64,000 bases of DNA. Source: Psammoneis japonica (lineage: Eukaryota). The first letter of the stretch is position 1. Each line of letters begins with the position of its first letter. Below the pieces are notes generated by a model. That model did no database searches, had not been told where the DNA came from, and saw only the letters and a program-made list of their open reading frames with translations. Positions 1-64,000 of the stretch are shown one piece after another. The stretch covers positions 186,001 through 250,000 of the forward strand of contig QPGO01000109.1 in the NCBI GenBank assembly GCA_008632985.1. Direction: 5' to 3'. The translations under genes were made by a program, and so were the position numbers.

Positions 1-668
1 GGAAATCAGCCCAACGGAGAGATGCAGAGGCGGAAGTCAAGGTCATTTGCTCCAGATCAAGTGAACATCTTGCAAAGGACAGGTCCACCTTGTTTGACTC
101 GGTGGAAGAACACTTGACTCATTCTGCTTGCAGATTGCAAAATTAGTTGGAAATGGTGAGACCCATGTTTAAATCCAGCATTGAGGAGGCGAAGTGGCTT
201 GAAGTGAGGGGCACTCTTGCTGTTGCTGGTTGCTTTGGTGTGGTTGGGTTTTGTTTTTGACGGAGCAAATTTGTGCAAAATGGAACACTTGTGTGGCCTC
301 GAGAAGGGCAGAAAACGATCACGTCACATGTTTCTTCTCATCACCGTTGAAAAGCCACCATCAAAACCTTTGTCCACCAGCAACTGGCAATGAATCTGCA
401 GAGGTGTGGCTTTGTGAAGTGGAGCCGTCAAGATGAAATTTGGAAGAACGCCACTTGATTGCACTGAAATGCCTCCCAAATTTTCCGACACCAATCCAGA
501 CATGCTCAACAGTGACAAAGCACAACAAGCAAGGAAGAAGCAACGTTTTTCTGAAGAAAAAGAGAATGATGGGATGTCAATTGAAGAGTTGGATTCAATC
601 AGGCAACAAATTGCACCTCGGTTTGTCCACTTGGATTCAACTCGAGCCGCAATGTTTTTGCTCCAACC

Positions 669-3098
669 TTGGTTTACCCCAATGACATTGATGCAAAGAC
701 AGTTGTGCAAGATTGCATTGACATTTTGTCTGCTGTTGTCAATCATCCACGTGGCCACAAGACAGTGTTGCCTGACCAGGATGACAAGAATCTAGCTGCC
801 AACTGTGAAAAGGCATCCATTGGGCATCGTGCACTTTGCATCATGGCAGCACTTCAGGCCACACTCAACAACCTCAAGGGGGAAGGAAAAGAGATTGAGG
901 GTGATGTGACTTGGGGTGAGTGCTGTGGGTGTGCTGTGAAAAGGCCAGAGGAGGATGGCATTGCTGCCATTGGCATTTGGCGCAAGCGGGAGACCACTTT
1001 TCTCAAAACACCAAATGAGGCAAACCTGCACTCCCACCTTTTTTAGCAGCAATCCTGAAGTCAAGAATGCATTTGTTTGGCGCGCAATGCACAATCTGAA
1101 AGATCTTTCAATTGAGTTGATGCACAAGCACCTTTGCCAGAAGACAATTCCTGCGCTGCTGCTGAGCGCAAAGAATGATGTTGTGGTGGAAGATGATGAC
1201 GAATTTGAGCAAACCATTGAATCCACTGGTGAATCTCATTTGCTGACTGAAGATGAGGAAGATGCCAGAAGTTCATTTCTGAAAACGTTTGGACCAAGGA
1301 CATTTTCTATTTTGACAGTGTTGCGGTGGATGCATCTTCTTGGATTCAAGCATGCTCACAGGCTGAAAAGCTTTTGTGTTGATGGTCACAAGAAGCCCGC
1401 CATGAAGGCGCATTGAAAACAATTCACCAGATGATGCCTTGAGTTGGAGACGAGGTGCTGCAGGTGGGTGCAAATTCCACTGGAAGAAGCGACAGAGCTC
1501 ATGAATGCAGGCTTGGTTCCAAATCTTGGTCAGGACTCTCTCTTTGCTCGAGATGGAAATGTGTGTGTTGAGTTCCATGTGGACGACTGTGGCAGCTTTC
1601 ATGACATGATCACTCAATCCGCCGACCCGAAAGTGTGGGAATGTGTTGGATGTCCAAGCCACCAGTTTCCTGCCAGTGCAAAGCCAGCTGTGTTGTGGGG
1701 GCAAGATGAGGCCATTTTCAAACAGCTTCCATTGAACAACAAGGCCCCATGGTGAGACAGCACTGGTTCCGAAAGATGAGGGCCTTGGAACAATGCCCTC
1801 TCTTTTTGTGTGTTGGGAGTTTGGCCCAGTGCAAAGTCTTGATGATGATTTGCTCAAGAAAGTGAATGACAAAAGGAGCAGAGCTGTGTGCTGAGATGAA
1901 GCAGCAGCAACCGAAGCACAAGGGTCCAATTCCAAGAAAGATGTGAAGACGTTGCTGCTTGTCTGCGAATTTGAGTGTGGGCAGAACAATGAGGGACACT
2001 GGATGCACAACCACGTGGTGACGCAGCTTGAAGATGTTGTTGATGCACTTGCCGAAAAGTGTCCTGAATTTGATTGCATTTTCTTTTTTGACCACTCGTT
2101 GGGCCATTCAAAGCAGCTTGAGGACGGCTTGTTGGTCTTCAAGATGAACCTGGGGTGGGGTGGGAAATGCAAGATGAGAGACACTAAATTGACAGAATGT
2201 GTGGGAGAGCATGAGAATGCACAAAGGCTGCAAGTTGGTGACACACAATCAATGACATTCCAAGACGAGGATGAAGGGCCTCACCTGATGGATCCAGAAG
2301 AGCGACTCCAACAAAAGGAAGACACGCCAACAGATGAGTTCAAGACTGTTGACAAATTCAGAGAAGAGCTGGAAAATGACTTGAAGGCAAATGTTCCAAA
2401 CCACTCAGTGCCAAAGGGCACCACAAAGAAAGATTTGCAGGATGACTGCAAGAAAGCAAACATTCCAATCAAAAAGACAGTGCAGAAGATTCTCCCGGGT
2501 CAGCGCAGCAAGCCAAAAGGGTTGCTTCAAGTGTTGACAGAAAGGGGGTTGATTGATGCCAACCTAAGAGTGTGGAAAGGGAGGGATTAAAGATCAGTGT
2601 GGGAATTGCATCGAAAATGCAGAGCCAACAGAAATGCTTGCCTCTTGTGAAAATTTCTCCAAGGAAACTGCACTGCTTCAGCATCATGATGCATGTCGCA
2701 TGGGAGTCCACACAATCTTGACTCCAAAATGTCATGCTGAATTGGCGGGGGAAGGCATGGAGCATCTTTGGGCCTGTGCAAAAGGTCAGTGTCAAAACCT
2801 CTTCCTGTCAGAGAAAAGCAGAAAAGACAATTTCAAGAAATTGGTCAGGTGTTGCTTGTCAGATGAGGTGTTGTCAATGGAGCACATGCACAAGTTTGCA
2901 AAGAGAGCATGGCAGTGCATTCAGGCTTGCCATGCCATTGACAATGGACACATTGAGGACACCAAGAGGGTCCATGAATTTGGACCCATTGCCCTCAACA
3001 AGGTTGTCAAAATGTTCAAGGCGCGCCATTGTGCTCTTGATTTTGCTTTCAAGTTCATCAAGAGCAACGAATTTTTGAAATCGTGCAGCCCGCTGTAG
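669..3098 (+). pseudogene. Fragmented DDE transposase (IS630/Tc1-like C-terminal motif), TpA-depleted
   Basis: Consecutive ORF pieces carry FCVDGHKKP, WGQDEAIF, PKDEGLG, FECGQNNEGHW, FFFDHSLGH and TPKCHAELAGEGMEHLW. These resemble the YVDGHE / DES / EGYW / FDxSxGH / PKxHxEL motifs of eukaryotic DDE transposases. Several frameshifts and stops. Confidence 0.7.
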
Positions 3099-3204
3099 AA
3101 ATTGCACGGGGACAAAGACACAATGGCTGGTCACACTCACTGTGAACAACCCAGAGCCAATTTCATTTTGTGCCATGTTGCATGGATTCCCACACCACAT
3201 GGCG

Positions 3205-3486
3205 TCAGCACAATTCCAGCCACACTGCACTGTGACATCAACAGTTTTTTGGATCACGTCGCATGTCGCGCATGCACATTTCTGTGTGCGACATTCTACA
3301 AAATTGTTTCACTCAACATTTGTGAGAATCATGCAAACACACTGGGCATGTTCTCAAATGTCTGCAGAACACACCCGGGCAAACTGTTGATGATGTGCTG
3401 CAAGTGTGAAGGAGGAGATGCACTCGCAAAATTGCCTCTTTTTCTGTATGTCACACGGAGAGTCCCACCTGGGACTGGAGCCCATC
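3205..3486 (-). mobile_element. Decayed relative of MITE-A (or right end of the upstream transposase element)
   Basis: 3226-3290 matches the reverse complement of 29220-29280. 3449-3486 (tgtcacacggagagtcccacctgggactggagcccatc) matches the reverse complement of the MITE-A left end. Confidence 0.65.
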
Positions 3487-5330
3487 AACAGACAATTCAT
3501 GCACCTCTGGCCCGCAGGCTTGAGGGTTCAACAGGAATCATTTTACGGCTCTCAGAGTCATTGCACAGAAATTGCGTGGAAGAGCACCAGAAACAATTGT
3601 CTGCAGTCTGTCTGCCCATCCACACTCAAATGTCAACTTCTCAGGAAATGAATCAACTGGAATTTTGTCTGACCAAAGGCATTGCTCTTCTCCATGCAAA
3701 TCAAGATGCCTTTGGTCAGACAACATTTCAACTGAGTTCCCCCAAAAAATTGCCAGCTCCAATCACCCTCTCGCACAACATTGTGCGCACTGTGCATTTC
3801 TGCACAGTTTGGCATTTTTCCCTGTGCAAAATGACAATTGTGACTCTTGCAACATTTTTGAATGATTCCTGTTGAGGGGGGAGCACTTTGGGACAAAAAG
3901 GGGAATCCCCCCGACAAAAAAAGTGGGGGCCCAGTTTTTGGAACACACCATCATGCTGCCTGTCAAACCCAGCAGGGAATGCCCTCTGGCCAGCAGGAGC
4001 CAGGTTAAACCATCATCATGCGACATCCATTGCACACACTAAACTGCAGCCTGCTCTCTGGATGGGCACCTGGACAGGCCTTTTGTTGCACGCAAGAAAG
4101 AGAGAGTGTGTGATCTTGTCTGAGACTCTTGTTTGGTTCTCATTGAACAAGCTCCTCAGGAGAGAAAAGACTCGTCTGCAGCAGGCGCATCATCCTCCAT
4201 GGTGTGTTCGTTCAACAGCATCTTCTTGCAATTTGCAATGGATGGGTGTCTTCATTGCAGTTTGCATTCAGCATGCATTGTGCACTGTGCACCATGCGCT
4301 CATCATGGTCTGTGCTGCATGGCATGTGGTGTGTCCTGGTGGCTCACAGCCCATGTCATCAGACAAAATAAACTGGGGAGCCCCAGCTGGCTCCCCCCTG
4401 AACCCTTGGGCCCACTGGCACACATGACAGACAGATGGACATTGCATGAGCCAGGGGTTGCTGGAGCCACAGGCCTGGCATGTTGACATCAAGCGCTCAT
4501 TTTGTGCCACAACATTGTGCAAAAATCATGCCATGCAACGTCATTGCTCTTGAAACTTGAAGCAGCCAAAAGGTTGTGGGCAACCATGATGAAAAATGAA
4601 AACCTGATGGTTCTGGTGGCAACAAGCAAGTTTGTTCTCAATGGGACATTGTGTTGCTGTCATGTGTTCTTTTTGCTTCATTGTGACACGTGACTTTTTT
4701 GATTGAAGTCAATCCACAACATCTTGTTTTCCACTTGCAAACATGCAAAACACACGCAAATCCCACTTGTTGCCTGTCCAAGTTGCAACTTGATGGAAGT
4801 TTTGGTTGCCCGAATCTCCCTGATGCAATGGATTTGGGTCAAGGTGAAGTCATTCAATTGCGTGGAAAAGAAGCGTGGCAAAATTTTGATGAGAACACCG
4901 CTGTTGATGCTTCCAATCATTGGATGGATGCCGGAGCATTTGTTGTGAGGTGAGAACTCGAGGGCAAGTTTTGTGACATTTTCTGTTGTTGTGCTCACAA
5001 AATCAATTGTTTTCAACGTCTTCATTGTCAGGGTGAAGCTTTCTTGCCTGTTGGAGAAGCGAAGTGCAGATGAGAATTTTGTTGCACAGATCAAACGTCT
5101 GAGGAGCCGCTCCCCACCAGCAACCAGCACCACTTTCTAAGATGAACAAGCTCATGGCATGTGCAGAAGTTGTGCACAGAAGTGCACTGTCGGACAGATG
5201 ACGGCCGTGCAATTGACTGCAATTTGCATGACAAATTTCCAAATTGCCATTCATTCAATGCCGATGATGACGATGGCAATTTTCAGATGCTGACAGAGGA
5301 CTAGTTTGCAACAGGCACTCAACACATTAA

Positions 5331-5675
5331 TCAATTGCACCATGGAGAATGCACATGTGTAAAGAAAGTCCCCCGGACGAACTCATGATTGTTTTGCAAT
5401 CGAGTGCATGAAATGAAAAACAGAGAGCTCTGTTTTGGTGTGACATTTTGCTTTCGAATGGAGGTTGCTCGTGGGGACTTTCATGACTGAACACATTCTT
5501 AAACTTAAAAACTAAATGTCTGCAATGACAAAAGACTCTGGGACATGTTGCTGTCATCGCCATCGTTGCGACAACGCACCACCGTCACTCGCCGATTTTT
5601 GGCGATGAGGCGCGCAGTGCGCTGAGCGTTTCTTGCACAGCAGAAGAAATCCTGAAAAATCAAATTGTCGTGCCT
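5331..5675. repeat. Dispersed ~350-bp repeat, copy 1
   Basis: Colinear with 21636-21982 (shared agaaagtcccc, ttttgctttcga, actttcatgactga, actaaatgtc, caatgacaaaagactctgggaca, gacaacgcaccacc). Confidence 0.75.
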
Positions 5676-7384
5676 TCACCCCTTTGTTCTGTGAACACCT
5701 TAAGAGCCCTAGATGACCAGCTTAGACACGCATTACATCAACGACAGATCTCTCAGAGAGTTCACACAACTTAGAGACTTTCGTCTGCTGCTTCAGTTGG
5801 ACCAGCCCGGCCCATCATCACCTCCAGCCCAACAGCTTCCGGCATCTCAAGCACTTGCCATGCTTTGCTTTTCACTCCAATCACCCACAATCATTGCAAT
5901 TGAGAATGCTTGGCAAGGCACTGTTGATTTGAAGACAATGTGTGATGAATCTCCTTGCAGCCCGAGTCGATTTGGTTGTCAAGTTGGGCGGCTGGCAAAC
6001 CACTTCCAGGCGGATCTGTGTCTGTTCTGCTCATGCAGAACCACCCCGAAAAGCAAGACACCTCATCCTGTCATCTGCTATGCACATGCGAGTGAACAGA
6101 CGTGATTGCATCTGTGCACTCCGACTTGAACCTCAGAAACGGCGTTGCCGGTCGATGCACCCGCGGCAGAAATTTTGATGAAGAGCAAAAAAAGCGTCAG
6201 CAAAAGTGTGACATTTGACAGTTTGAGTGGTGATCACCCACTTGTGTCCATCCCATGGGATCAATCAATGCATTCCAAGTGTGCTTGCCTCTCAAATGAA
6301 GACAATGACGAAGTCGCAACAATCAACCTTGTGGACAGCATGTTCTTGCCACACAAAAGCACGAAGTGCGGCGGTGCTCGACCAACAACCACGAACATCC
6401 GGAGGTAACTCCATCCACACCAGCACTTTTGTTGATTCGTTCAATGAATGTATGGACATTTTGTGCACTTCGGTCATAGAGGCATTCGCAACCTTCGATT
6501 GGGATGGAGGCAAAAACAGCAAAAATGCATTGGAACAGTGGCAGATCGGCAATCGCCACACCACATGTTTCCAACAAGGTTTAGAAAGACACCGCAGATG
6601 CGATTACCGCTCGATTATTAACATTAACGCCGCCGTAAACGATTTGCTCACCATGGTCGAAATCTTTTTTTCTCGTGCAAAAGCACGAGGATTGGGGGGT
6701 GGCGGACGAACGTCCACAAAGGCACTGTAGCACATACACCTAAATTCGTACGTTTCACCCTCGAACCCGCGCCGCATCGCATTATTTCTCGGCAACCCCC
6801 TTTGACCTTGTTGCGAGGCCTTCGCATCAAGTATCAGAAGCTTAAGGCGGGCCGTCGGCTTATTTTTTTCGCACGTCTTTTCCGGGTTTTAACGCGTTTT
6901 TGACGGGTCGCGACAGAAAATAACACGACAAAAGCACGAGCGACAATGATGATGTTCGCGACGAGCGGTGAGTTGCAAAGTATCACCTCACGAGGGATAC
7001 TCATTGGTTTTATTATCGTCATATAGTTCAGATTGATTTATATGCTTTCGTCCCTCGTGCCACTGGGCCAATTTTGAGAGATAGCGTAATTGCCGTCATC
7101 GTCGTGCTTCGATCGCGGTGCCTGATGTTCTCGTTTTCGTGGGCGATCGAACAATTCTTGTATTTAAAATTAATAATTATAAATAAACGTATTCAAACAC
7201 ATTGCTAATTTTAGGATAAACGCGGAAAAAATGGGTCGGCGGTCCCCCTTAAAGACTCCAAGAGCGAACCTAAGAAGTATTTTGAGAGTCATATGAGATA
7301 TGGCAAATGAGTGGTATCGATTGAGGCAACTATTGGATAAAAACGATAAGAGCACTGAACTCTCATCATACCGTGACGTCTGAA

Positions 7385-8018
7385 ATGAATAACAGCTGGA
7401 CCGGCGGCAGCGCTGTTCCTCCGCCTGCCTTTGAAAACAACATGGCTTCGCAGAGTACACTGCCTTATAATCAAGAGCAGCAGTATAATCAGGTGACACC
7501 GCAGTCATCTACGTACTACAACCGAAACAAGAACAGCAATAAACAGATGTTCGCCTGTCTGTACCGGTACACCAAACAGCTCACGCAAAAACGCAAGGTA
7601 TGGCACGACGGGAAACTCACACTGACAAAGTCACCGTCGTCCTTTCATATGGTATTGCTCAAAGCGACTCCAAGTCTCGGTACGACAGGAACAGCTTTGG
7701 AAGAGTGTGATTTGACGATACAGCAGGGACAAATGATGATTGCATCCGGTAGTGACGAGACTGTGGAAACCGAGAAACACCTTATTCAAGTGCAAGGGCC
7801 GTGGATAGAGCCATCGAATCGCATATCAACGACTCCAAACAATAGTGGTGGTCCGTCCACAGGGATGCAAAAGATACTCAGGACGAAATTTCGTAAACCG
7901 AATCGATTTATTCCTCCTCCTCCGCAACAGCAAAAAGCGCCATCACTTCTCGGGAAACGGACTCGTCCTTTACAACCGGGAGAGTTGCAACGACGACATT
8001 ATGGAGAATCTTGCCCAC

Positions 8019-8049
<31 letters not shown>

Positions 8050-8995
8050 GCTCTATGGTGGCTCTCAACAACCGTCCAACTGGGGTGGACAACAAGAACA
8101 GCGCCACAGCTCTCACCCGTCCAGTGGCGGTGGACCACACGAATATCGTCCTTCCTCGAATAACAATCACTGTGCGACGCCGAGTTACCCAGAGCCTTCT
8201 CGAAACACTCTGGGTCATCCTGAGCCGTCGGAAAATCATGCAAGAGGACCAGTAGCTGGTTTCAACTACGCTCACTCGAATATGAATACTGGCTTTGCGT
8301 CTGGTAATCCGTATGCACAGGGTTCTCGTGAGAATAGGACGCCCCAGCAGCAGCATCAACCTTCTCGTGTTGACAACAACGACTGCCAACAATTCTCATC
8401 GAACCAACCGCCACCGCCCATTATGGATGCCACACGTGCTCCTCCAACGAGTCATTTTGTCAGAAACGGTGACGGACACGACGGTAACAAGGAGAATCAT
8501 CGTCAGCCGCAAGACATGCAATCTACTGATAGGACGCGTCCAAGCCAGAACTCCTTTGCCAATAACGACTTTGATCCAAACAGTATCTATGGTGAAGAAG
8601 AGGATGACGACGACATGAATCATCACAATGATGCGCAAAGCACGGCTCCCTGGCACGGGAATTATAATACCGCATCTACCAATAGTAGTATTACAAATGC
8701 GTGGGGCCCTGCTTTAGACACGAATCGCCAACAAGAGCCGCGTCCTTCTGGAACGCTGTCTTCTCACAAGAATGTCCCGTCTGGAGAACAAGACAATACG
8801 GGAGTCGCAGAAAAGAAGCCATTGTCCACGAATCAATTGCTCCAACTCTTTGGCGTGGGATCGGCTGCTCCAACGGATGCCAGCGATACAGAACGCGTCT
8901 CTGAAGAGGTTCGAGGCAATCCTGCAACTGCACCGTTGGATGGCAATGACAATGACGGTACCCCCAACAATGACAGAAAACCAATATGCTTTTGA
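7385..8995 (+). CDS. DUF2439 (ZGRF1/Mte1 N-terminal-like) domain protein with long Q/N/P-rich disordered tail
   Basis: Motif LYRYTKQLTQKRKVWHDGKL followed by LEECDL...ETEKHLIQV; normal Tyr content. The true C-terminus may run in the other frame to 9044. Confidence 0.7.
8024..8050 (+). repeat. (CAG)n polyQ microsatellite in CDS
   Basis: Nine tandem CAG. Confidence 0.9.
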
Positions 8996-9258
8996 TTTAC
9001 CGTCTCAATCGTCCTCTGACTCTTCGTCGCTGGACGATGACTAGCTAGAGCGTCGAGTCCTACTTGTAGCGGAAAAAGTAGAACAGCGTCTTTTTCAAAC
9101 ATTATAGCTAGGACGAAGCTGTTTATACTTCTACTTGACGACTGCGTTGTATTCTACTCGAGGGAACGCTAGCTATCTCCACATCACACAAAGCTGCTCC
9201 AAGCTCTTCTCATGGTCAAGGTCAACATCTCCGCCGGTTTTCACCATTTATATTTTCC

Positions 9259-12426: not shown

Positions 12427-12498
12427 TATTGTCTGAGGCGATTGAGGGAGAAGACACGACGAAAAATAACTCGAGAGAAACAACATTAGCCCTAGGGA

Positions 12499-32607: not shown

Positions 32608-32640
<33 letters not shown>

Positions 32641-53353: not shown

Positions 53354-56300
53354 GTGTTTCCGCCCACGACTCCTCCTTCATCCAGTGTCCCTGCTTCGGG
53401 TGCTCCGGCTCCTGCGGCTGAGTTTTTCTTCGATGCCGAGTCCGGACCCAAACCCGCGCCGGATCCACCGGTTCCCCAAGCTCACCATCTGTTGCCATGG
53501 GATCTCCTCAAGCTCCCGCTCTTTTGGATCTCTGCAATGATTTGGGAGGGTCTCCTGTGGCTCGTCTGCTCCCAGGATGATCCCCCCCCTCCTCCCCGCC
53601 GTGTGCATCGCCTCAAGCACCGCCCTGCGCTGCATCGCTGCCCCTGTCGTTGGGGCATGATTGCGTGCGCGATTGCGCTTTGGCATTTTGTGTGCGGCGG
53701 CGCTGTCCCTCCCCACCCCTTTCAATCATTGGACCGCCTCTCTTCTCAAACATGCGAAGTTGTCTCCGCTCTCGATGAGTGCGTCGATCCATCGCCCGGT
53801 GCGTTCGTCCAGCACCATGCCATCAAGGTCAGACAATTCAAATGTGAGTTGGCGCACTCAGAGGGAGACAAGCAAGACACCGCCACTCTGCCTTTCGAAC
53901 TTTCCGAGTTGGTTGACAAGAGTGACAATGACCATTTCTTTGATGCGTGCACGGAGCTCCCCGTCCATGCGGAATGCTTCTTCGATGCTGACACCTTCCG
54001 CGAGTCTGACTGCTCGAGCCCGGACATCTTCGGCATTGCTGACTTGTGTCACGCCCGCTACTTCGTCGACTGCACCAATGCTCCGGAGCTCGCTGCGGAG
54101 GATCCCTCGGCCTCCCCCGCTTTGCCGACCTCCGCTGCACTTCGTGCCATTTCCGGGGAGACCCAACTTGCGCGTCTCGCCACTGATCCCCAGGCCCTCT
54201 TCCACATCGGACCAAGTGATCTCCAGGTCATTTTTGATGCTGGTGCCTCGCAGGCCATCACTCCTGACGAGAAAGATTTTGATGGTCCGATCAAGCACTG
54301 CCAGACCCCGCTCTGCCTCGGCGGCATGGCTGACGGCATGTGCATCACTGGTGAGGGCACCGTCACGTGGACCTTTCAAGCCAGGGAGGGTCACGAAATT
54401 ACTGTCCAGCTCCGCGCCTGTCTCGTCCCGTCCTCCAAGGTTCGCCTGCTTTCTCCACAATGTCTCTTCCATGCAGACGGCACCAAAGGACATTTTTGGG
54501 GTGACAGTGAGATTTTCAAGGTTTGTTTCGCAGACACGCCGGAGTTGACGCTTGAGTGCGACGAGCGCTCCCACTTGCCGGTTGGCTGCGCGACTCTCGG
54601 TTCTGTCCATGCACCACAAGTCAATTTGAGCACCATTGGCGACCCGGACAACCTCAATCTGTCTGCTGGACAGAAGCTTCTCAATGAATGGCATGCGCGC
54701 TTTGGGCACTTACATTTTCCCAAGATCCAAGCTCTGCTCCGTGGCCATCCGTTCGAGGCCATGAAATTCAAGGCAGCATCCAAATGCGACATTCCAAAAT
54801 GCGACACATGCGAACATGCCAAGGCTCATCGCCGTTCTTTGAAGTCTACCATTCACAAATCCGACCCCAAGCGCGATGGCGCATTGAAGGCTGACCATCT
54901 CAATCCGGGCCAGTCCGTCAGCGTTGACCATTTCGAATCGCGTCTCAAGGGCCGCACCTGTGATTCATGCGGCAAACCGTCCTCCCAGCAGCATGTTGGC
55001 GGCTGCATCTTTGTCGACCATGCCTCTGGTTACATCCACGTTGAACACCAAGTCGGTTTCTCCACTGTCAAGACTGTTCGAGCGAAACAGGCATGTGAGA
55101 CCATGGCAATGGGACACGGCGTGATCGTCCAAACTCACCTCACCGACGGTGGCGCTTTCAAGGCCAACCAGTTTGTTTCCCACGTCCATGACTCCCAGCA
55201 ACGCATGCGCTTTTGTGGTGCCAACGCTCATCATCAAAATGGTGTTGCCGAACGCTCCATTCAGTCCATCTCCAACATGGCTTGCGCCATGATCCTCCAT
55301 GCTTCGATTCACTGGTGTGGTGGCATCGACAGCTCTCTGTGGCCCATGGCGGTGCACTGTGCTGCCCACATCTGTGATGCTGCTCCCGGTGCCCATGGTC
55401 TGTGTCCCGCCGACATCTTTGCTGGCTCTGCCGTCCCGTGCCACCGCCTCCGCGATCTCCATGTTTGGGGTTGTCCCGTCTACGTCTTGGATCCCAAATT
55501 GCAAGAGGGCAAGAAACTTCCCCGTTGGCAGCCGCGTTCTCGGCGTGGTGTCTTTCTCGGACTCAGTCACATTCACGCCAGTGAGGTGCCATTGGTCCTC
55601 AATCTCAATGCTGGCTCCATCACTCCCCAGCACCACGTTGTGTTTGACGATCTCTTCACCACAGTTGCTTCGATCGCGAGGGAGAGCGAACCGCCGGATC
55701 ACTGGGAAGAATTGTGGTTGGAGAATGCCACTCAAATTCCCTTGGACTCATCCGATGGACCGTTGTTCCTTCAAGACGACTGGCTTGCTCCTGCTGAACT
55801 TGAACAGAAACGACGACATGAGACTGGGGAATGCAATGTTCGTGCTGCACGTCAACAGCAGCAGAACTCACCGAAACCCGTTGAGAAGCCAACACCTGCA
55901 GCGGATCCTTTGCCAACTCCAAATCCACCGTCGTCTACACCATCGATGCCAACAACTGCAGTTGATCCATCACCGACACCACCGCCACAAACACCGTCGC
56001 TTCAAAACCCATCATCGCCAACACCTCCGGTTGACGATCCTCCACCTTCAGTTGCACGTCCGCCACCTGCTGCTGGCGATGGTCCGGGCACGTCAGTCCC
56101 ATCCACGACTGCTCCAGTCCCACCTGAACCTTCATCCACGACTGAGACACCAGGGGTGCGCCGATCCCAACGTTCGAACAAGGGTGCGCGCACAACTGCT
56201 CGTTTCGCCAATGAAGCACATCTGGCTTCTGTTGTCCCTGACGATGTTGGAGGACAACAGGCTCAGCTTGCCCATTTCGCTGAGATCCAGACTGACTGTG

Positions 56301-58015
56301 ATTCGGGTGTTTTGGACATTCAGGACCCGCGGATCTACGCCGCTAAAGTCAAACGCGATGCGGATAATCCGAATGTTCGCGAGGCTCTCTCGGGTGATTT
56401 CGCTGAGCAATGCATTGAAGCCATGAAGACGGAGGCATCTGCTCTTGTAAATCGTAAAACGTGGCAATTTGTGAAACGGGAGAAGTCAATGAACATGCTC
56501 AAGTCCACGTGGGCATTCAAGTTGAAACGATTGCCGGGTGGCACGCCGCTTGAGTTCAAAGCGCGATTTTGTGTCCGAGGAGATCCACAAAAAGAGGGAG
56601 TTGACTGCTTCGAGACCTGCGCTCCAGTGGTCCAATGGTCGACCATCTGTCTCGTGCTGAGCGCTGTCCCACAAGAAGGATGGACCACCCGTCAGGTCGA
56701 TCACACCAACGCTTTTGCGCAGGCCGAGATGACGGAAGACGTTTGTGTCGAACCACCCAAGTGTTTCGCTCCCAGTTCGGGATCCAATGTTGTCTTGAAG
56801 CTGCTCAAGAGTCTCTGCGGTCTCAAGCAAGCTCCCAAGTGCTTCTTTGACAAGCTGCGTGAAGGATTGTTGGAACGTGGATGGACCCAGTCGCAAGTCG
56901 ACCCGCGCCCATTTTTCAAGGACGGCATGATTTGTGTAGTCTGTGTTGATGATGCTGTCCTCGCTGGCAAGAATGGAGCCACTCTAGAACATGAGATCAA
57001 GGCTCTAGGCATCCAAGACGACGAACAACGCCATGCATTCGAGTTGCGAAACGAGGGAGAAGTTGGTGACTTCCTCGGCATCAAGATTCGCAAAACCGGA
57101 CCCAAGGAATTCCTCCTCACCCAGCCTGGACTTGTTGACAAGGCCCTCAAAACAGCTGGCATGGAAGATTGCCGCTCTTCTCCCACTCCTGGTGCTGCCT
57201 CTCCATGTCATGCGGATAAAGAGGGAGCCGAATTCGACGAGAACTGGGACCACCGTTCCGTCATCGGCATGTTGATGCATCTGTCATCCAACTCCCGACC
57301 AGACATCTGCTGCGCCACGCATCAAGCCGCCCGTTTCTCACATGCTCCCAAGCATTCCCATGCGATTGCGGTGAAGCATGTTCTGCGCTACTTGCAAGGC
57401 ACCAAGGACAAGGGACTCTGTCTGCGCCCTGGCGACAACGAACGTGTTGATTGTTTCGTTGACGCCGACTTCGCCAGCCTCTACGGTCACGAAGACTCTC
57501 AAGATCCGGTCAGCGTCAAGTCCCGCACCGGATGTGTCATCTTGCATTGCGATTGTCCCATTTTATGGGTTTCTAAGCTGCACACGCAAATGGCACTCTC
57601 CACCATGGAAGCCGAGCACCTTGCTCTGTCGGCTGCGATGCGCGACCTGATTCCGATTCGTGAAATTTTGAAGGAATTCAAGTGTCATGTTTTCGGTCTC
57701 ACGGATTACAAGACCCCTGCCACCACCAAGTCCAAGGCCTTTTCAGATGCAAAGGATGGTGCGATCCCTTCTTCAGCAGTTTATGAAGACAATCAGGCGT
57801 GCCTCAAGTTTGCGAAAATGGCCAAGTTATCTCCACGTGCCAAACACATTGGCATTCCCTGTCATTGGTTCCGCACCAAGGTTGAGGCTCTTGAGATCCG
57901 GATTGAGCCTGCAGGAACTGATTCCCAGTTAGCTGATCAATTTGCAAAGGGACTTGTTGCTGACAAGTTTGAATCTGGTCGGTTGAGTCTCTCAGGCTGG
58001 CAGCTCTGCGGTTGA
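53354..58015 (+). pseudogene. Copia pol, open frame but catalytically mutated
   Basis: VIFDAGAS protease; WHARFGH...CDTC; VSVDH, TDGG, QNGVAER; FKARFCVRG, LKSLCGLKQAP, VVCVDD; DADFA, STMEAE, EDNQAC, QLADQFAK. Confidence 0.93.
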
Positions 58016-59270
58016 GAGGGAGAGTTGACGTCTGTCAATCCACCTGTCGACTGCGCGCAATCGCGCGCTTCAATTTTCAAATTCCGCCATCAAAACTCTG
58101 CTCGACACTGCAGTCATAATTTTTCAGTCAACGACTTTTGCAACAACAACAGCTGCCAGTTTACAACCTTGAGCATCAGCTCTTTCGATGTCTGCAGTCA
58201 TGCATCGGCACAACAAGTCCCGCCCCCAATGTTGGTTGCAATCAAGTGTCAAGACCGGCCTTCATCCAGGTTCTGGTGAACTCCAAGTTGTCCAAAAGAG
58301 AGGGCTCGATCTGTTTTTGGGCTTGATGCGCAGCAACTGATTCAGCACCAAAACGCCCAAGAGCAGGAAGTGCCCCAACAACTAGCGGCAAGCAAGCCAG
58401 TTGAAGGTCATGTCTTTGGCAACTCCGACACATGCAATTTCGGGGTGAGCAAGCCGAAGTTCCTCTGGTGCGTTTTCGAATTCTATTTTTCCAAACACAA
58501 GAGCCGCCGCAATCACATCTGGTGCGGTTCGCAGACAAATCGGAACCTCGTCCTGTGATTCAGGATCTCCACTTGACGCCAAAGCAGCAATTGCAACCTT
58601 TCCGTTTGCCATCAAATTATGCGGCAGATCCCAATGAGAAACTTGCTTGCATCCCTCCAGTGCCAATGCCTTCATTGCCTGATTCTCTGGGCTTGATGGA
58701 TTGTCCAAACAGCGAACTGCAGGAAAAGCTTGAAAGGCAGCGCATGCAATCTCAATGTCATTCTTCCATTCAGGCTCGCGATCATTGAAGTTGATTTTGC
58801 GTTTTCCAATGGAAGACAAGACAGATTCACGGTTCTCCTTCTTCACTTCTAGAGTCGGGACGACGCCTGAGTTGATTGCCTCCTCGAGTTCTGCCACGTG
58901 ATGACGGAGTCTGCCATTTTCTTGTTCCAGTTCAGCAATGCGCTGCGTTTGTCGAGGCGCGATTCTTCCATTTTCAATCTCTTGTTGTTGGATGCAATGA
59001 TGACAAGACGATGGGACTCACAATGAAGAAAACAAGTGATTGCTGCGTGCGGCAAAGGGAAGGATTTTGAAAAGAATGGAGAATGGCCGCATCATTGTTT
59101 CGATCACGATTGATGAGAGGACTGTTCTCTCTGGGCAGACCTTGTGCCCCCAAGAACTGTCATGCATGTTGGGTGTTTGCCTCTCTGCGAAGACAAACAT
59201 TGAACATTCACAAAAAATGAATCACACAATGACCACCCAGTGCTGTTGTTGTTGCAGATGTCTTGGGCAG

Positions 59271-62200
59271 ACAGTGGGACCTTGTCAGGCTGCTGAGGTC
59301 ATCTTGGCTCTTGGCCAGCATCAGAGAGTGCAACCTTGTGACTCGCACTTTCCTTGTGAGGCCCAGTCAAAAGCACTGCTGCCAAAAATGCCAGCCTGTT
59401 GACTTCACATGTTGCCAACACTCCAAGCTGACAAAATGTGTGTGCTTTGTCTGACACATCTCAGTGCTTTCCTGACAACTGTGTGCAGACCAAACAAGTG
59501 CACACAACAGCTGTCTTGCATGCTTTGGTGCGGCGCTGGGTGGCTTGTTGTGTGCTGCAAATGTTTTCAATGCTTGTCTGATGTTTTTAAATTGAGCTTG
59601 GTTTTAACTTCCTCCCACTGCCCTGTGCAGCTAACTCACCACCACCTGTTGACTGAACATGCAACCCACATTGTCGTGCTTCCCACAGAGCAGTGCTTCT
59701 GCACACACAGATTTCCAGCAGCACATGCTCTGCAAAAGCGTGTGCCCTCTCCTCAAACACAGAAGATCCAGAGTGCCCAGCATTGTGATTTGCCCCAAAG
59801 TTGGCATGCTGAAGTTTGCCCCACAAAGTTGGCATGCACAGTTTCTCCCCAAAGTTGGCATGTGCCAAATTTGGTGCCAAAGTTGTTGGCATGCCGAATT
59901 TTGCCCAAAGTCAGCATGCCAAGTTTCCCCAAAGTTGGGCTCTGAGTTTTGTGCCAAAGTTGGCATGCCAAATTTTGCCCCAAAGTTGGTCTGCTGAGTT
60001 TCACTCCAAAGTTGGCATGCCGAGTTTCGCCCCAAAGTTGGCATGCCAAGTTTGGCTCCAAAGCTCATGCGCCAACTTTGTGGCACCAAAGTTGGCATGC
60101 CAAGTTTTGCCCCAAAGTTGGTCTGCCGAGTTTCACCCCAAAGTTGGCATGCACAGTTTTGCTCCAAAGTTGGCACACACAGTTTTACCCAAAAGTGGTT
60201 GACCTGCCAATTTTTGCCCCAAAGCTGGCATGCCAAGGTTGCTGATCAAGCGAGCATGCCAAGTTTGGCATGGCATGCCGAGATTCACACCAAAGTTGGC
60301 ATGCCGAGTTTTGCCCCAAAGTTGGCATGCCAAGTTTGGCACCAAATTTGGCATGCCAAGTTTTGCCCCAAAGTTGGCATGCCGAGTTTTGCCCCAAAGT
60401 TGGCATGCCAAGTTTTGCTCCAAAGTTGGCATGCCAAGTTTTGCCCCAAAGTTGGCATGCCGAGTTTTGCCGCAAAGTTGGCATGCCAAGTTTTGCTCCA
60501 AAGTTGGCATGCCAAGTTTGGCCACAAAGTTGGCACGCCAAGTTTTGCTGCCGCAAAGTTGGCATGCTGAATTTTGCCCCAAAGTTGGCATGCCGAATTT
60601 TGCGTCCAATCTGTGGGATCAGCATTGCTGTGGACAGCCTGCAGACACACGAAAGTGGCATCATTGGTGGCCACGGTGGGGATGCCCACTGCACTTGCCC
60701 CAAAGTTGGCACGCTGAGTTTGGCACCAAAATTGGCATGCCGAGTTTCACCCCAAAGTTGGCATGCTGAGTTTTGCCCCTCAGGTGACAGTGGGACCTTG
60801 TCAGGCTGCTGCTGGGGCTGTCTTGGCTCTTGGCCAGCATCAGAGGGTGCAACCTTGTGACTCGCACTTTCCTTGTGAGGGCCCAGTCAAAAGCACTGCC
60901 ACCGAAATGCCAGCCTGTTGACTTCTCACTCACATTGCCATCACTCTAAGCTGACAAAATGTGTGCTTCATCTGATGCATCTCAACGCTTTCCTGACAAC
61001 TCTGCAGACCAAACAAGTGTGCACAACAGCTGCCTTGTGCTTTGGCATGGCGCTGGGTGGCTTCTTGTGTGCTGCAAATGTTTTCAATGCTTGTCTGATG
61101 TTTTCAAATTGAGCTTGGTTTTAACTTCCTCCCACTGCCCCTGTGTGGCTAACTCACCACCATCTGTTGACTGAACATGCATCTCACATTGTCATGCTTC
61201 CCACAGAGAAGTGCTTCTGCACACACAGATTTCCAGCAGCACACATGCTCTGCAAAAGCATGTGCCTTCTCCTCAAACACAGAAGATCCAGAGTGCCCAG
61301 CACTGTGATTTGCCCCAAAGTTGGAACACCAAGTTTTGCCCCAAAGTTGGCATGTTGAGTTTTGCCCCACAAAGTTGGTGCGCACATTGTCTCCCCAAAG
61401 TTGGCGCATGCCAATTTTTGCCCCAAAGTTGGCATGCCAAGTTTGCCCCAAAGTCAGCATGCACAGTTTTGCCCCAACGTTGGCATGCTGAGTTTCACCC
61501 AAAAGTGGTCGACCTGCCAAATTTTGCCCCAAAGCTGGCATGCCAAAGTTGCTGACCAAGTGAGCATGCCAAGTTTGGTGCAGCATGCCAAGATTCATGC
61601 CAAAGTTGGCGTGCCAAGTTTTGCCCCAAAGTTGGCATGCCGAGTTTGGCGCCAAATTTGGCATGCCGAGTTTTGCCCAAAAGTTGGCATGCCAAGTTTC
61701 AAACCAAAGTTGGCATGCTGAGTTTCGGCCGAAAGTTGGCCTGCCAGGTTTTGCCCCAAAGTTGGCATGCTGAGTTTCGCCCAGAAGTTGGCCTCCCAAG
61801 TTTGACGCCAAAGTTGGCATGCCAAATTTGCTGCTGTTGGCACCAAAGTCAGCATGCTGAGTTTTGCCCCCAAGTTGGCATGCCAAGTTTTGTGCCCAAG
61901 TTGGCATGCCAAGTTTTGCCCCAAAGTTTGCTTGCATCTCGTCATTCACAACATGATGATGACAACACACGTGCTTGAACCGGCAACCCAGAATTGGGTT
62001 GAGGTCACTTGCTTGATGAAGTTGCCCCACCTGCATTCGACAACCCCAATGAACATCCAAGGAAGACATGGGAGACAGAGTGCTGTCCCACTCATTGTGT
62101 GGGGATGTGCGCCAATTTGCAGCAGAAGGTGCTGCCTTCAATGTCAACTGGGGTGACACAGCCATCAATGGTGGCAATGTGCTGCAGGCTGTCAGGAACC

Positions 62201-62300
62201 TTGAGCAACCAGTCGTTGATGTCTCATGTTTGTGCTGCTCAAGCTGTCCACAAGAGTGCATGCCAAGTTTTGCATCCCCCAAAAAGTTGGCATGCCCAAT
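59271..62300. repeat. ~1.5-kb tandem duplication, each unit containing a 26-bp satellite array
   Basis: acagtgggaccttgtcaggctgctg at 59271 and 60788; arrays of CCAAAGTTGGCATGCCAAGTTTTGCC at ~59790-60780 and ~61310-61930. Confidence 0.9.
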
Positions 62301-63689
62301 GCTGTGATGTCCCAATCAGAGCTGGAGTGTGCCCAAAGTCAGAGGCACACCACTGCATGCACCATGCAGCACCTGCTGCTGACACAATGTCGGGGCCCTG
62401 AGGACGGCATGTGTGCGCCATTGTGCACTTCTGTGCACGCTGTTGGCAACACAATGCTGAGCACAATGTCGCAGCAGCTGTGCAACAAAGACAGCAATGC
62501 AAAGTGATGCAGTGTGAAAGAGGAGGAGAAACATGGTGATGGGCACCTGTTTTTTTTTCATTGACCACTCAGTGGTCAGTGATTGCAAACTTTTTTGTGT
62601 TGGGCAGTCAGTCAGGCAGTCGGGCAGTCGGTCGGGTTGTCGGTCCATCTGAATTTGAGAGTGTGTCCCTCGGATTTTGGAACGGCATGGGTTGTTTGGT
62701 GCAAATGAATTGTTTGGATTCGCAGAATGATTGTTGAGGACATCAGATGTTGTGGGGACATCCTAAAAAGTTGATGAATTCCCTGTGATGGGTGCATGGA
62801 ACGTTTTTTCAGGAGAGCTTGAAAGTGCTTTAAAATTGGGGTTGCTGGCGTGGCATGTTGAAAAATGCACTGAGCTTTGAATGAAGAGAATTCATTGTGA
62901 ATTGCACACAAAACAGTCGTGTTGGAAAAAACATGTCAAACAATGACTGTGTTTGTGCGATGCACCATTTTGGCAATGAATTGGAAAAAAGAGTGTCCGT
63001 GCACCTCGCCACAGCCCCAAGAATGACACGAGCCACAAAATGCAACAGTCATCCACGTCACCGTTGCCGGTGGCCATGCCACACAGCTGCCACAATGCCA
63101 GCCCCCCATCGGTGCCATGCAGCAGGGCCCTGCATGCTGGCAGGAGGGGGCAATGCAGCACACAACGGCACACACCCACAAAGAAAGACAAGTGATCAAT
63201 TCTCCCCACAGGCCTGGTTTTTTGCTGAACGCTCTTTTTTTTTTTGCTGGCGGCAAGCCTGATGTTTGTGTGTGGACATTTGTGTGTGCAACATTGGGCA
63301 ATCAGTGCCACCACATTGTCCACACATGTGGCTGCAACAACTGAAAAATGTGAGTGCTCTGTGATCCTGCAAGCAATGCTGTGCCTTCACACATGCATGT
63401 TTGAAATTTCAAATTTTCCGCGACTTGTCGAAACGCAATGACAGTGGCGACCACGAAAAATGCAATGCACTCCATCAATGGCCACAAGCAAACTCACCAC
63501 AATGCTGACACATGTCAACAGCAGCATGTGACTCATTTCATGTGCGCGTGCCTTGCTGGGCTTTGATGTTGATTGATTGCTGTGAAAACAGCTGCAACGT
63601 TCAATTTTTTGCCCATCGCTTTTCGACTGCACAAGCCAACAATGAGCCTGTTGCACCTGCACTTGTCAATTCTGCCGCACATGAGTTCT

Positions 63690-63791
63690 CACGAGATGCA
63701 ATGCACTGTTGATTGTTGTGGCTCTTGAAGGTGACACCAAGTTCACGAGATGCAACACACTGTTGATTGTTGTGGCTCTTGAAGGTGACGC
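63690..63791. repeat. 54-bp tandem duplication
   Basis: cacgagatgcaa..cactgttgattgttgtggctcttgaaggtgac at 63690 and 63744. Confidence 0.85.
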
Positions 63792-64000
63792 TGTTGAAGA
63801 AACGGCAAACATGTGGAGTTGCCATGGTGTGGTGGTTCTTGCGGTTTCCGGCTGTGGCATTTTAATGGCAAACCTGCTGTGCTGAAACTGAGTTGTGCTT
63901 GTTGAGTTAGCATGGCTGCCTCTTTGTGCATCATGTGCCCATCATTCTCAGTGGCGGGGCTGCCAGAAAAAAAAGACGTTGTGTTTGGCAGAAAAAAAAC

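Follow-up and report, generated by a model that had tools for sequence, protein, structure and literature searches.

Near-saturated loss of TpA from mobile DNA in a diatom genome window, with TpA-specific hypermutation as its probable cause

Mobile DNA in part of the genome of the diatom Psammoneis japonica has probably undergone transition hypermutation that is specific to TpA and acts on the DNA after insertion, likely by adenine deamination that is targeted to silent chromatin. The window, by which we mean the whole stretch that was analysed, is a single one of 64 kb (assembly GCA_008632985.1, contig QPGO01000109.1, positions 186,001-250,000 of the forward strand). Of the TpA dinucleotides in the window's transposons, about nine in ten are gone, close to saturation, which is the targeted pattern that a 2026 report described from viral insertions of an unrelated alga. 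The signature is the one that was measured de novo in integrated viral DNA of Bigelowiella natans.

TpA depletion in mobile DNA

The observed/expected ratio (o/e) of TpA is at most 0.2 in 32 of 64 one-kb segments. Per-kb values are 0.02-0.18 at 1-6000, 13001-22000, 25001-29000, 50001-52000, and 53001-64000, and 0.46-0.89 in genic stretches. Inside the depleted blocks, TG and CA reach an o/e of 1.2-2.1. TpA density is 5.1/kb in these blocks versus 42.4/kb in the host genes between them: given the host density (1,131 in 26,683 bp), 1,446 TpA would be predicted in the 34,104 bp of depleted blocks, which contain 175. The edges are sharp. For example, TpA at normal density ends at 12500, and the only ones that follow are at 12643 and 13084, which places the left edge of block 2 between 12500 and 12643. 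Within this one window, then, depletion is confined to mobile DNA and host genes are spared. The depleted blocks consist of Copia, Gypsy, MITEs, and unclassified repeats; the main features are as follows.

1-6400, no strand: depleted block 1, unclassified repeats; per-kb TpA o/e 0.03-0.17, CpG o/e 0.25-0.64
12650-22400, no strand: depleted block 2, made up of several repeats, among them a MITE copy and the 1111-aa ORF; 6.4 TpA/kb
18004-21339, + strand: repeat-encoded ORF of 1111 aa (putatively "Sola2-like"); 1 Tyr, 64 Cys, 39 His
24290-24476, - strand: Gypsy 3' LTR, 92% identical to 30461-30644; 11 TpA, o/e 0.87, undepleted
24477-28924, - strand: Gypsy internal region (Pfam RVT_1, RT_RNaseH, Integrase_H2C2, rve); TpA o/e 0.10, hypermutated
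30461-30644, - strand: Gypsy 5' LTR; 14 TpA, o/e 1.01, undepleted
49960-50365, no strand: TA-poor DNA just upstream of Copia; 3 TpA in 406 bp, o/e 0.12
50366-58218, + strand: Copia, with 195-bp LTRs at 50366-50560 and 58024-58218 that are 95% identical (Pfam RVT_2, gag_pre-integrs, SH3_retrovirus)
58219-64000, no strand: depleted block 4c, unclassified repeats and 26-nt satellite arrays (families D1-D3); 2.6 TpA/kb, 23.5 CpG/kb

A first-pass annotation of this DNA had described TA-poor, TG/CA-rich blocks with normal genes between them and a near absence of tyrosine from the proteins of the elements. Both observations hold: Tyr occurs once in the 1111 aa of the "Sola2-like" ORF, twice in 883 aa of Gypsy, and 8 times in 1599 aa of Copia. 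Seven host ORFs contain 1.3-5.0% Tyr. The block coordinates given there are right about the depletion but take in nested MITEs at 28925-30140 and 52472-52861 that retain much of their TpA (o/e 0.46, 0.87, and 0.69), and both Gypsy LTRs are undepleted.

Copia is hypermutated throughout, with a TpA o/e of 0.10 in the interior, 0.21 in one LTR, and 0.15 in the other; 500 base shuffles of the interior gave 267 TpA on average and never fewer than 231, and the actual count is 28. In Gypsy, 11 and 14 TpA remain in the two LTRs, against an o/e of 0.10 in the interior, and a simple model of whole-element targeting or a spreading domain does not predict such exact sparing. A purine-rich tract directly adjoins the 3' LTR on the element's strand. 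Between this LTR and the first Met of a DUF846 gene are 64 bp; the 5' LTR precedes the first Met of a SET-domain gene by 367 bp. We considered whether gene promoters might shield the LTRs, but depleted DNA begins 14-150 bp from the first Met codons of a helicase gene.

Block 1 has 4.5 TpA/kb, 108 TG/kb, and 105 CA/kb; none of its ORFs of at least 200 aa has a Pfam match, and its segment 5156-5677 is 72% identical to 21475-21985 in block 2. Depth in read contigs varies along block 2 from 2 to about 250 times single copy. The 1111-aa ORF has 880 relatives at E <= 0.001. A Pfam search of the ORF gave no family, and of eight relatives searched against Pfam, five gave nothing and three gave only a SAP domain; the atlas lead, DUF7869/DDE, scores below the level that is considered reliable. 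Public protein fragments related to this ORF contain 0-0.8% Tyr. Blocks 1 and 4c are low in CpG as well as TpA (CpG o/e 0.22-0.47), whereas CpG is normal in Gypsy and Copia (54-74 per kb), which lost TpA equally.

Direction, specificity, and strands of the changes

Protein outgroups fix the direction of change. At 57 columns where the outgroups conserve Tyr, the window has Cys at 29, His at 15, Tyr at 6, and another residue at 7, so that 44 of the 57 show the products of A-to-G or T-to-C transitions, in line with a spectrum made up almost wholly of such changes. By element, the counts are Cys 13, His 8, Tyr 5, and other 5 for Copia (31 columns); Cys 14, His 6, Tyr 1, and Arg 1 for Gypsy (22 columns); and Cys 2, His 1, and Phe 1 for the 1111-aa ORF (4 columns). 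Both reverse transcriptases have CVDD in place of the YxDD box. All 240 Copia and Gypsy relatives among the matches listed contain 2.3-4.5% Tyr.

The changes are specific to TpA. When A-to-G changes at codon position 1 are polarised with outgroups, 25 of 30 follow a T, versus 119 of 323 unchanged codons that start with G (p = 8.5e-7), and a T still precedes just 5 of 176 conserved codons that start with A. TA falls from 38-43 per kb in host DNA to 2.6-6.4 per kb in the depleted blocks; AA and TT together are intact (115-175/kb versus 156-161/kb in host DNA), and AT is not depleted either. Total YpR stays at 239-254 per kb as TG and CA replace TA. Together with the outgroup polarity, this bears out the earlier proposal of a real transition process from TpA to TpG or CpA. 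Host TpA contexts, used as a proxy for ancestral contexts, suggest a preference for R-TA-Y. In repeat pairs, this appears as a trend only: 17 RTAY sites were lost and 2 kept, versus 29 lost and 15 kept in other contexts.

Cys and His outcomes are interleaved along the elements, and the order of outcomes in a polarised pair of MITEs is without runs, so both strands were hit in independent events. There is a mild excess of A-to-G on the sense strand (29 Tyr-to-Cys versus 15 Tyr-to-His, p = 0.049). The Copia LTRs differ from each other at 10 aligned columns, including three TG/CA double sites and one TA/CA site; because they diverged at TpA sites, the changes occurred after integration, in DNA.

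MITEs support the same view. There are two pairs in the window.

14500-15053, + strand: MITE "14500" copy A, in depleted block 2; 6 TpA, hypermutated
29613-30140, + strand: MITE "14500" copy B, nested in Gypsy; 47 TpA, o/e 0.87, unmutated
28925-29313, + strand: MITE "28925" in Gypsy, 94% identical to 52472-52861; TpA o/e 0.46, partly mutated
52472-52861, + strand: MITE "28925" in Copia; 19 TpA, o/e 0.69, little mutated

Among the 44 TpA of copy B that align to copy A, 40 are TG (16) or CA (24) in copy A, and there are no reverse cases. If the pair is polarised, 43 of 47 TA sites changed, followed by CG (12 of 26), AA (11 of 58), and TC (9 of 32). In non-coding elements such as these, polarity is inferred, and a TG-versus-CA difference between copies may stem from an ancestral CpG. 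This ambiguity matters for the CpG-poor blocks 1 and 4c. The MITE at 28925-29313 is bounded by terminal inverted repeats of 12 bp, with a target duplication of 4 bp; duplications of this length are typical of Sola elements. That MITEs are affected and that the Copia LTRs diverged at TpA after insertion agree with the first-pass view that the process acts on DNA and on both strands.

The younger nested MITE is unmutated within a saturated Gypsy, and the Gypsy segments flanking it (copy B) have a TpA o/e of 0.22. The summed contig depth of copy A is 7,000-16,000, compared with about 55-75 for a single copy. Mutation state does not appear to follow copy number: a MITE at roughly 100-250 times single-copy depth is unmutated and an element with about two copies is saturated, although contig depth is a rough count and insertion age confounds the comparison.

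Proposed mechanism and alternatives

We propose that an A:T pair of a TpA step, on the top or the bottom strand, would be converted to G:C, which would yield TpG or CpA. Through many independent events on the two strands, silenced elements would have lost about 90-97% of TpA, with adjacent host genes left normal. Elements would be inactivated by missense changes, from Tyr to Cys or His and from the catalytic YxDD to CVDD, which fits the earlier claim that the process is confined to mobile DNA and disables it; signals that contain TA would presumably be erased as well. By enumeration, changing TpA to TpG or CpA can create no new stop codon, so long dead ORFs persist. The likeliest chemistry appears to be that an enzyme deaminates adenine to hypoxanthine where a T precedes it, probably with sites flanked as R-TA-Y hit most readily. 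Targeting would most likely be by silent-chromatin domain and not by copy number.

TpA is self-complementary, so sequence data cannot separate adenine deamination from a thymine-directed route. In such a route, the T of TpA would be modified in silenced DNA, for example to 5-hydroxymethyluracil (5hmU) by a TET/JBP-type dioxygenase, and mispairing or faulty repair would give T-to-C; the other strand would read A-to-G, and the outcome would be identical. We consider this unlikely. In dinoflagellates a TET/JBP homologue does make 5hmU, mostly in repeats, where it silences transposons, and in older work T was preferentially replaced in TA and TC (PMC11572971, as far as the accessible text goes). 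On the other hand, base-resolution mapping in Breviolum minutum found 5hmU without sequence preference (PMC11071213, accessible text), and we found no evidence for 5hmU in diatoms in the literature consulted. Also, a preference for TC predicts changes at TpC, and in the polarised MITE pair TC lags far behind TA (9/32 versus 43/47). The first-pass annotation had suggested error-prone repair by a Pol-eta-like enzyme; this could be patch repair as in phase 2 of antibody hypermutation, with 5mC-deamination mismatches in methylated repeats as the trigger. The A-to-G errors of Pol eta fall preferentially on WA motifs, among which TA is a hotspot. CpG decay in blocks 1 and 4c fits this idea, as does the frequency of CpG-type differences when repeat copies in the reads are compared (13 of 37 classified events). 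But AA and TT show no depletion where 85-94% of TA is gone, which makes TA, and not WA, the target; AA sites in the MITE pair changed at 11/58 versus 43/47 for TA; and Gypsy and Copia lost TpA equally with CpG at normal levels. We therefore think it very unlikely.

RNA editing is harder still to reconcile with these data. Under this explanation, an ADAR-like enzyme would edit double-stranded transposon RNA (U-A to U-I) and reverse transcription would fix the change. ADARs usually prefer a U upstream of the edited A (10.64898/2026.01.13.699255, available text), the sense-strand excess is in the expected direction, and the Gypsy LTRs are spared while the interior is hit. However, MITEs, which have terminal inverted repeats and 4-bp target duplications and move as DNA, are hit; the 15 Tyr-to-His changes can only come from the antisense strand; TpA differences between the Copia LTRs arose once the element had integrated; and the same preprint, in its available text, regards ADAR as metazoan. 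The footprint of a process confined to the sense strand of an RNA intermediate is not what we see, and we give this explanation a very small chance. A similarly small chance goes to a base-calling or polishing artefact, in which modified TpA in repeats would be misread as G or C depending on the strand and the TAs would truly be present. TG and CA are randomly mixed, as strand-dependent misreading would make them; for run X1 no sequencing platform is recorded, and the assembly may have been built from or polished with that run. Nevertheless, read-derived unitigs with k-mer depth of about 55-140 match the transposon block with 0-9 differences per 246-651 nt, and short unitigs of that depth require accurate reads; because read-derived contigs are equally TA-poor, an assembly artefact is unlikely. 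A metagenome contig (L062) without DNA similarity to the window has a TpA o/e of 0.04, TG of 1.64, CA of 1.69, and a CVDD box, and on its sequence it is an independent instance of the TpA-loss signature. The Tyr-poor public relatives of the 1111-aa ORF argue against an artefact as well, and the mutations in B. natans were called from Illumina data (10.64898/2026.01.13.699255, available text). Finally, the elements might avoid TA by selection (for example because of an RNase that cuts UpA) or come from a TA-poor donor. Cytoplasmic RNAs and RNA viruses are known to avoid UpA (PMC3829696), but catalytic and conserved Tyr residues have been replaced, depletion is just as strong in non-coding MITEs and satellites, the TpA content of sister copies varies with location, and 79 of 80 metagenomic Copia relatives have a TpA o/e of 0.38-0.92. 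We find this explanation scarcely credible. Deamination of adenine at TpA in silenced DNA is the reading we prefer.

Comparison with known systems

Like fungal RIP, the process would be a dinucleotide-specific transition hypermutation that cripples mobile DNA within the genome and leaves sharply bounded blocks of skewed composition. RIP uses cytosine-methyltransferase-like machinery and acts premeiotically. It converts CpA/TpG to TpA and creates stops; here the direction is the opposite, as the first-pass annotation had recognised, given the Tyr to Cys/His polarity and the T before 25 of 30 position-1 changes. The C-to-T changes at CpA, excess TpA, and premature stops that mark RIP are not the pattern here. 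RIP is triggered by duplicated sequence beyond a threshold of length and identity; copy number did not appear predictive here, as far as rough contig depths confounded by insertion age can tell. ADAR and APOBEC3 share deamination-based restriction of repeats, and ADAR prefers a 5' U, but their substrates are RNA or single-stranded cDNA, their footprints are on one strand, and they affect only retroelements; here, derivatives of DNA transposons are hit, on both strands, and changes accrue after integration. CpG decay driven by 5mC also occurs in blocks 1 and 4c and feeds the same pool of TG and CA, but it cannot remove TpA, and CpG is normal in Gypsy and Copia, where the loss of TpA is full.

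The first-pass annotation knew of no described pathway with this signature. In fact, exactly this signature was measured by Mettrop et al. (bioRxiv 10.64898/2026.01.13.699255; our statements concern the available text) in mutation-accumulation lines of B. natans, where viral inserts change from TpA to TpG or CpA. In two inserts, 230 of 231 de novo mutations were A-to-G or T-to-C, all at TpA; the rate was about 1000-fold over background, only some lines were active, and an ADAT2-like adenine deaminase was proposed. B. natans is a chlorarachniophyte (Rhizaria) and P. japonica is a stramenopile; we found no report of TpA hypermutation in diatoms in the literature, and "diatom" and "stramenopile" occur 0 times in the available text of the preprint. 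There, the rate was measured directly, while here the process is known from its footprint alone. Depletion in the proven targets of B. natans, one NCLDV insert and one virophage insert, is moderate (Rho 0.45 and none); in the diatom window it approaches saturation in LTR elements, MITEs, and satellites (o/e 0.03-0.15). The effect of flanking bases (R-TA-Y versus Y-TA-R) and the spared LTRs are seen here only, as far as that text goes. Nevertheless, 19 of the 64 one-kb segments pass the cut-offs of that study, and its low-TpA coding sequences are enriched in reverse transcriptase and DDE endonuclease domains. The two cases have in common the dinucleotide, the two products, the sparing of host genes, the targeting of foreign or mobile DNA, and, over the long term, a footprint in which TpA is low and CpA+TpG high.

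TpA depletion of mobile DNA

The TpA content of the window is strongly bimodal. By per-kb dinucleotide counts, the ratio of observed to expected TpA (o/e) is 0.35 for the whole window; it is 0.02-0.18 per kb at 1-6000, 13001-22000, 25001-29000, 50001-52000, and 53001-64000, versus 0.46-0.89 per kb in genic stretches. TpA o/e is 0.2 or less in 32 of the 64 one-kb windows, and TG and CA rise in the low-TpA blocks to o/e values of 1.2-2.1. So the initial description of TpA-poor, TG/CA-rich blocks lying between normal genes was accurate. The depleted blocks have sharp edges. They contain 175 TpA in 34,104 bp, while 1,446 would be predicted from the density in host DNA (1,131 in 26,683 bp). Similarly, the interior of the Copia element has 28 TpA, whereas 500 shuffles averaged 267 and never fell below 231. 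The depleted blocks consist of mobile DNA, and the repeats in the window are:

50366-58218: Copia element with 195-bp LTRs
24290-30644, minus strand: Gypsy element; its LTRs are 184-187 bp, and a purine tract adjoins the 3' LTR
28925-29313 and 52472-52861: MITE family "28925", two copies
14500-15053 and 29613-30140: MITE family "14500", two copies
18004-21339, plus strand: repeat ORF of 1111 aa in a depleted block
Elsewhere in depleted blocks: unclassified repeats and 26-nt satellites

The two MITE families are related: both have 4-bp target duplications and 12-bp inverted termini that vary at a single base. All but one of the four copies sit within LTR elements, and summed contig depth suggests on the order of 100-250 genomic copies of the "14500" family. 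The 1111-aa ORF had been labeled as Sola2-like, but its score in an atlas family look-up was under the reliability mark, so that label is unconfirmed. The 26-nt satellite arrays (59885-60600 and 61284-61997) form a duplication with a spacing of about 1.5 kb, part of it inverted; the inverted arms (60339-60545 and 61628-61834) are 74% complementary. The arrays lie within a block where TpA and CpG are both scarce.

The host genes have almost no introns. The products that Pfam identifies are a ZGRF1-like protein, a helicase with six HA (helicase-associated) domains, a DUF846 protein, a SET-domain protein, a TPR protein, and a SulP sulfate permease. The permease's best relatives are 56-80% identical and include named pennate diatoms, which places the window in a diatom rather than in Bigelowiella. 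The six HA domains correspond to six tandem 204-nt repeats (9193-10512) that are 73-95% identical. A 739-aa ORF (33182-35401, minus strand) in the most GC-rich genic part (58%) is 10.6% Cys and matches no Pfam family; because its TpA usage is normal, its Cys content is not a product of hypermutation. Also, 152 nt of TA-rich intergenic DNA (40990-41141) are palindrome-like, with a 74% match to their own reverse complement.

Depletion of CpG follows a different map. CpG o/e is 0.22-0.47 at 1-5000 and 59001-64000, and the other blocks are not CpG-poor. Because the Gypsy and Copia elements have lost TpA yet have normal CpG, TpA loss is separable from 5mC-type decay. The CpG-poor and CpG-normal repeat blocks may differ in age or in chromatin state.

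TpA is the ancestral state

If TpA mutated to TpG or CpA, then Tyr codons would have become Cys or His codons. We compared the Copia element to 40 relatives (MAFFT, fast settings) and considered the 31 columns in which at least 70% of the relatives have Tyr. The window's element has Cys in 13 of these, His in 8, Tyr in 5, and another residue in 5. Its retention of Tyr is just 16%, versus 58-100% for each other residue. In the Gypsy element, the 22 conserved-Tyr columns contain 14 Cys, 6 His, 1 Tyr, and 1 Arg; in the 1111-aa ORF, the 4 such columns contain 2 Cys, 1 His, and 1 Phe. The Cys and His at conserved Tyr positions that the first-pass annotation had pointed out are thus seen, against relatives, in all three elements. 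Tyr makes up 2.3-4.5% of every relative listed (120 Copia and 120 Gypsy) and 0.1-0.5% of the window's ORFs, and both of the window's reverse transcriptases have CVDD where the family motif is YxDD.

A second polarized test considered replacements that require A-to-G at codon position 1. Of 30 such changes, 25 follow a T, as compared to 119 of 323 unchanged codons that start with G (p = 8.5e-7). T still precedes 5 of the 176 conserved codons that start with A. Together, these two tests imply that TA was the ancestral state and that TG and CA are the products. For non-coding repeats, the same polarity is probable given their context and the coding elements.

Specificity and sequence context

The four YpR dinucleotides total 239-254 per kb in every block, whether host or repeat, and only their partition shifts: TA goes from 38-43 per kb to 2.6-6.4 per kb in depleted blocks. 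Neither AA+TT nor AT is depleted. This rules out GC-biased gene conversion, as a general W-to-S drive would also deplete AT, AA, and TT. Error-prone repair by a Pol-eta-like enzyme, which had been suggested as a cause, should leave a WA-motif signature, and it is excluded by the intact AA+TT and AT and by the constant YpR. A UV "TA photoproduct" would leave the restriction to transposable elements unexplained, and we know of no transition bias for this lesion.

The 175 surviving TpA hint at a wider context. ATAT does not occur among them, GTAC occurs twice, and ATAC/GTAT occurs 5 times, while TTAA (31), CTAG (18), and CTAA/TTAG (30) exceed their share among host TpA contexts by a factor of 2.7-3.5. 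Pairs of repeats show a weak trend in the same direction: RTAY was lost 17 times and kept twice, while other contexts were lost 29 times and kept 15 times. We consider a preference for R-TA-Y to be a lead, as the host contexts serve as a proxy for the ancestral ones. Among the polarized MITE events, the flanks of the mutated A did not differ from those of its unmutated partner on the other strand, and the excess of product 4-mers was too noisy to assign a per-strand flanking preference.

Mutation of both DNA strands after insertion

The MITEs show that the changes occurred in DNA. The copy at 14500-15053 has 6 TpA and its sister at 29613-30140 has 47. At 40 of the sister's 44 aligned TpA, the first copy has TG (16) or CA (24); there are no changes in the opposite direction. 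The order of TG and CA outcomes across these 40 sites shows no runs. Similarly, a runs test of seven depleted blocks gave z of -0.80 to +0.51, with no sign of processive one-strand bursts, although ancestral TG and CA dilute this test.

The LTRs of an element are identical at integration, so differences between them arose afterwards. The two Copia LTRs differ at 10 columns, of which 7 are accounted for by three TG/CA double sites and one TA/CA site. In principle, a TG-versus-CA double site could stem from an ancestral CpG. However, the LTR pair has a single CG/TG difference and CpG is normal in the Copia element, which makes TpA the far likelier source. Double sites in CpG-poor blocks are ambiguous and were left out of the evidence.

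Both strands are affected, as had been argued from the sequence: Tyr-to-Cys (29) and Tyr-to-His (15) changes are interleaved along the ORFs. The sense-strand outcome is in excess, but this is borderline (p = 0.049).

Evidence from other data

Sequencing run X1, for which we had read-derived contigs, argues against an artifact. These contigs are short unitigs with a k-mer depth of about 55-75 over single-copy host DNA. Across 16.4-20.4 kb, the summed unitig depth is 106-142, and the unitigs carry the TA-poor sequence, departing from it at 0-9 positions per 246-651 nt. Only accurate reads would give exact 31-mers at this depth. X1 is primary-data support, but it is not fully independent, as it may be the assembly's own data and its platform is unrecorded. 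We classified 37 events among the 40 variants listed (there are 274 more): 9 were TpA-type, 13 were CpG-type, 9 were other transitions, and 6 were transversions.

The signature also occurs in metagenomic data. Of 80 metagenomic relatives of Copia, 79 have TpA o/e of 0.38-0.92. The exception, a 1789-bp Copia fragment (L062), has o/e of 0.04 for TpA, 1.64 for TG, 1.69 for CA, and 0.20 for CpG, and it has a CVDD box. At the DNA level it does not resemble the window, and it is independent support for the signature. Across these metagenomic loci, 6 of 1,180 one-kb windows have TpA o/e below 0.2, but the patterns used for the scan called for Tyr or Phe in two motifs and so selected against mutated copies. 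Another metagenome contig (L046) has a milder low-TpA stretch (251-1750, o/e 0.16-0.19).

Of the 150 relatives listed for the 1111-aa ORF, seven (P0388, P0404, P0405, P0417, P0430, P0462, and P0485) are short fragments from JGI, Logan, and NCBI contigs that have 0-0.8% Tyr and raised Cys and His. They may represent hypermutated copies from other data sets. Where an unmutated relative has Tyr, they mostly have C, H, or F, in counts that are too small to weigh.

Targeting

TpA o/e for the parts of each LTR element

LTRs: 0.87 and 1.01 in the Gypsy, 0.21 and 0.15 in the Copia
Interior: segments at 0.10, 0.22, and 0.22 in the Gypsy, 0.10 in the Copia
Nested MITEs: 0.46 and 0.87 in the Gypsy, 0.69 in the Copia
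Flanks of the Copia: 0.12 and 0.05

The nested insertions are younger than their hosts and less mutated, as might be expected of a gradual or episodic process. An element's state does not seem to follow its copy number: a MITE copy is untouched even though its family has a summed contig depth of 7,000-16,000, while the 1111-aa element, with roughly 2 copies, is saturated. A trigger that is purely repeat-induced is therefore less likely, although the age of the insertions confounds the comparison and contig depth measures copy number roughly. A preprint on the alga Bigelowiella natans describes a single-copy NCLDV target, which points the same way (10.64898/2026.01.13.699255).

The Gypsy LTRs (24290-24476, with 11 TpA, and 30461-30644, with 14) have normal TpA. 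They are 8% diverged, with just 2 TpA-type differences. Two outward-facing host genes have their first Met at distances of 64 and 367 bp from them, so the LTRs may sit in open promoter chromatin. The helicase gene is a counter-example, as the distance from its first Met codons to depleted DNA is 14-150 bp.

Mechanism and consequences

What we observe is a process that acts on DNA at TpA, causes only transitions, affects both strands in many independent events, is confined within this window to mobile DNA, and inactivates it. Pol eta, RNA editing, artifact, and selection each fail at least one of our tests. The process is probably enzymatic, and the simplest chemistry would be deamination of adenine to hypoxanthine. 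The natural substrate of TadA/ADAT2 is A34 of tRNA, which is always preceded by U33, so a requirement for T-A is what a DNA-acting derivative of these enzymes might keep. However, tRNA position 32 is usually a pyrimidine, which does not match the purine that appears to be preferred two bases upstream of the edited A. A thymine-directed route via 5hmU would have an identical outcome in sequence, and we think it quite improbable. In dinoflagellates, 5hmU is reported to mark and silence transposable elements (PMC11572971), and the evidence that it prefers TA is conflicting (PMC11572971, PMC11071213).

By enumeration, changing TA to TG or CA turns no sense codon into a stop, while TAG and half of the outcomes of TAA become sense. 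Because stops are lost and none are created, frames of 883-1599 codons stay open in dead elements. At 51000-58000 and in other depleted blocks, many ORFs of 200-380 aa overlap one another on both strands and in several frames (for example, 53661-54548 plus, 53858-54709 minus, and 54965-55747 minus), as expected if loss of TpA eliminates TAA and TAG, two of the three stop codons. Gene finders are likely to mis-call such frames as Tyr-free, Cys/His-rich "hypothetical proteins."

Comparison with known systems

Hypermutation of cytosine is an established form of genome defense (RIP and APOBEC). For an adenine- or thymine-directed counterpart on nuclear DNA, there is so far one 2026 preprint on one alga, so the statement that no described pathway has this signature is out of date. 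In 15 mutation-accumulation lines of B. natans, 231 of 302 nuclear single-nucleotide mutations were in an integrated NCLDV and a virophage, and 230 of these 231 were A>G or T>C, every one at TpA (10.64898/2026.01.13.699255). Rates in the inserts were about 1000-fold over background, in some lines only; reverse transcriptase and DDE domains were enriched among 324 coding sequences with low TpA; and the authors put forward an ADAT2 homologue as their candidate for the enzyme. Neither diatoms nor stramenopiles are mentioned in the preprint (10.64898/2026.01.13.699255). We found no report of the signature in a diatom or in anything else besides Bigelowiella, in a literature search whose coverage excludes most subscription journals, so the diatom case appears to be new.

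The near-saturated footprint in diatom transposons means that the process is not limited to one species or to viral inserts. Diatoms have tractable genetics and great ecological weight, and genomes that bear the footprint can now be compared by their deaminase and dioxygenase genes to search for the enzyme. A natural TpA-specific A-to-G editor of DNA would be of interest for base editing.

Our tentative proposal, to which we give somewhat less than an even chance, is that diatoms and chlorarachniophytes share a host-encoded A:T-to-G:C DNA base editor that is specific for TpA (best at R-TA-Y), acts in silenced chromatin, and wrecks transposons and integrated viruses by missense changes and erasure of signals rather than by stop codons. 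If so, then the enzyme would found a new class, either of DNA adenine deaminases or of thymine modifiers, and the system would be an ancient defense of the SAR lineage and the mirror image of fungal RIP.
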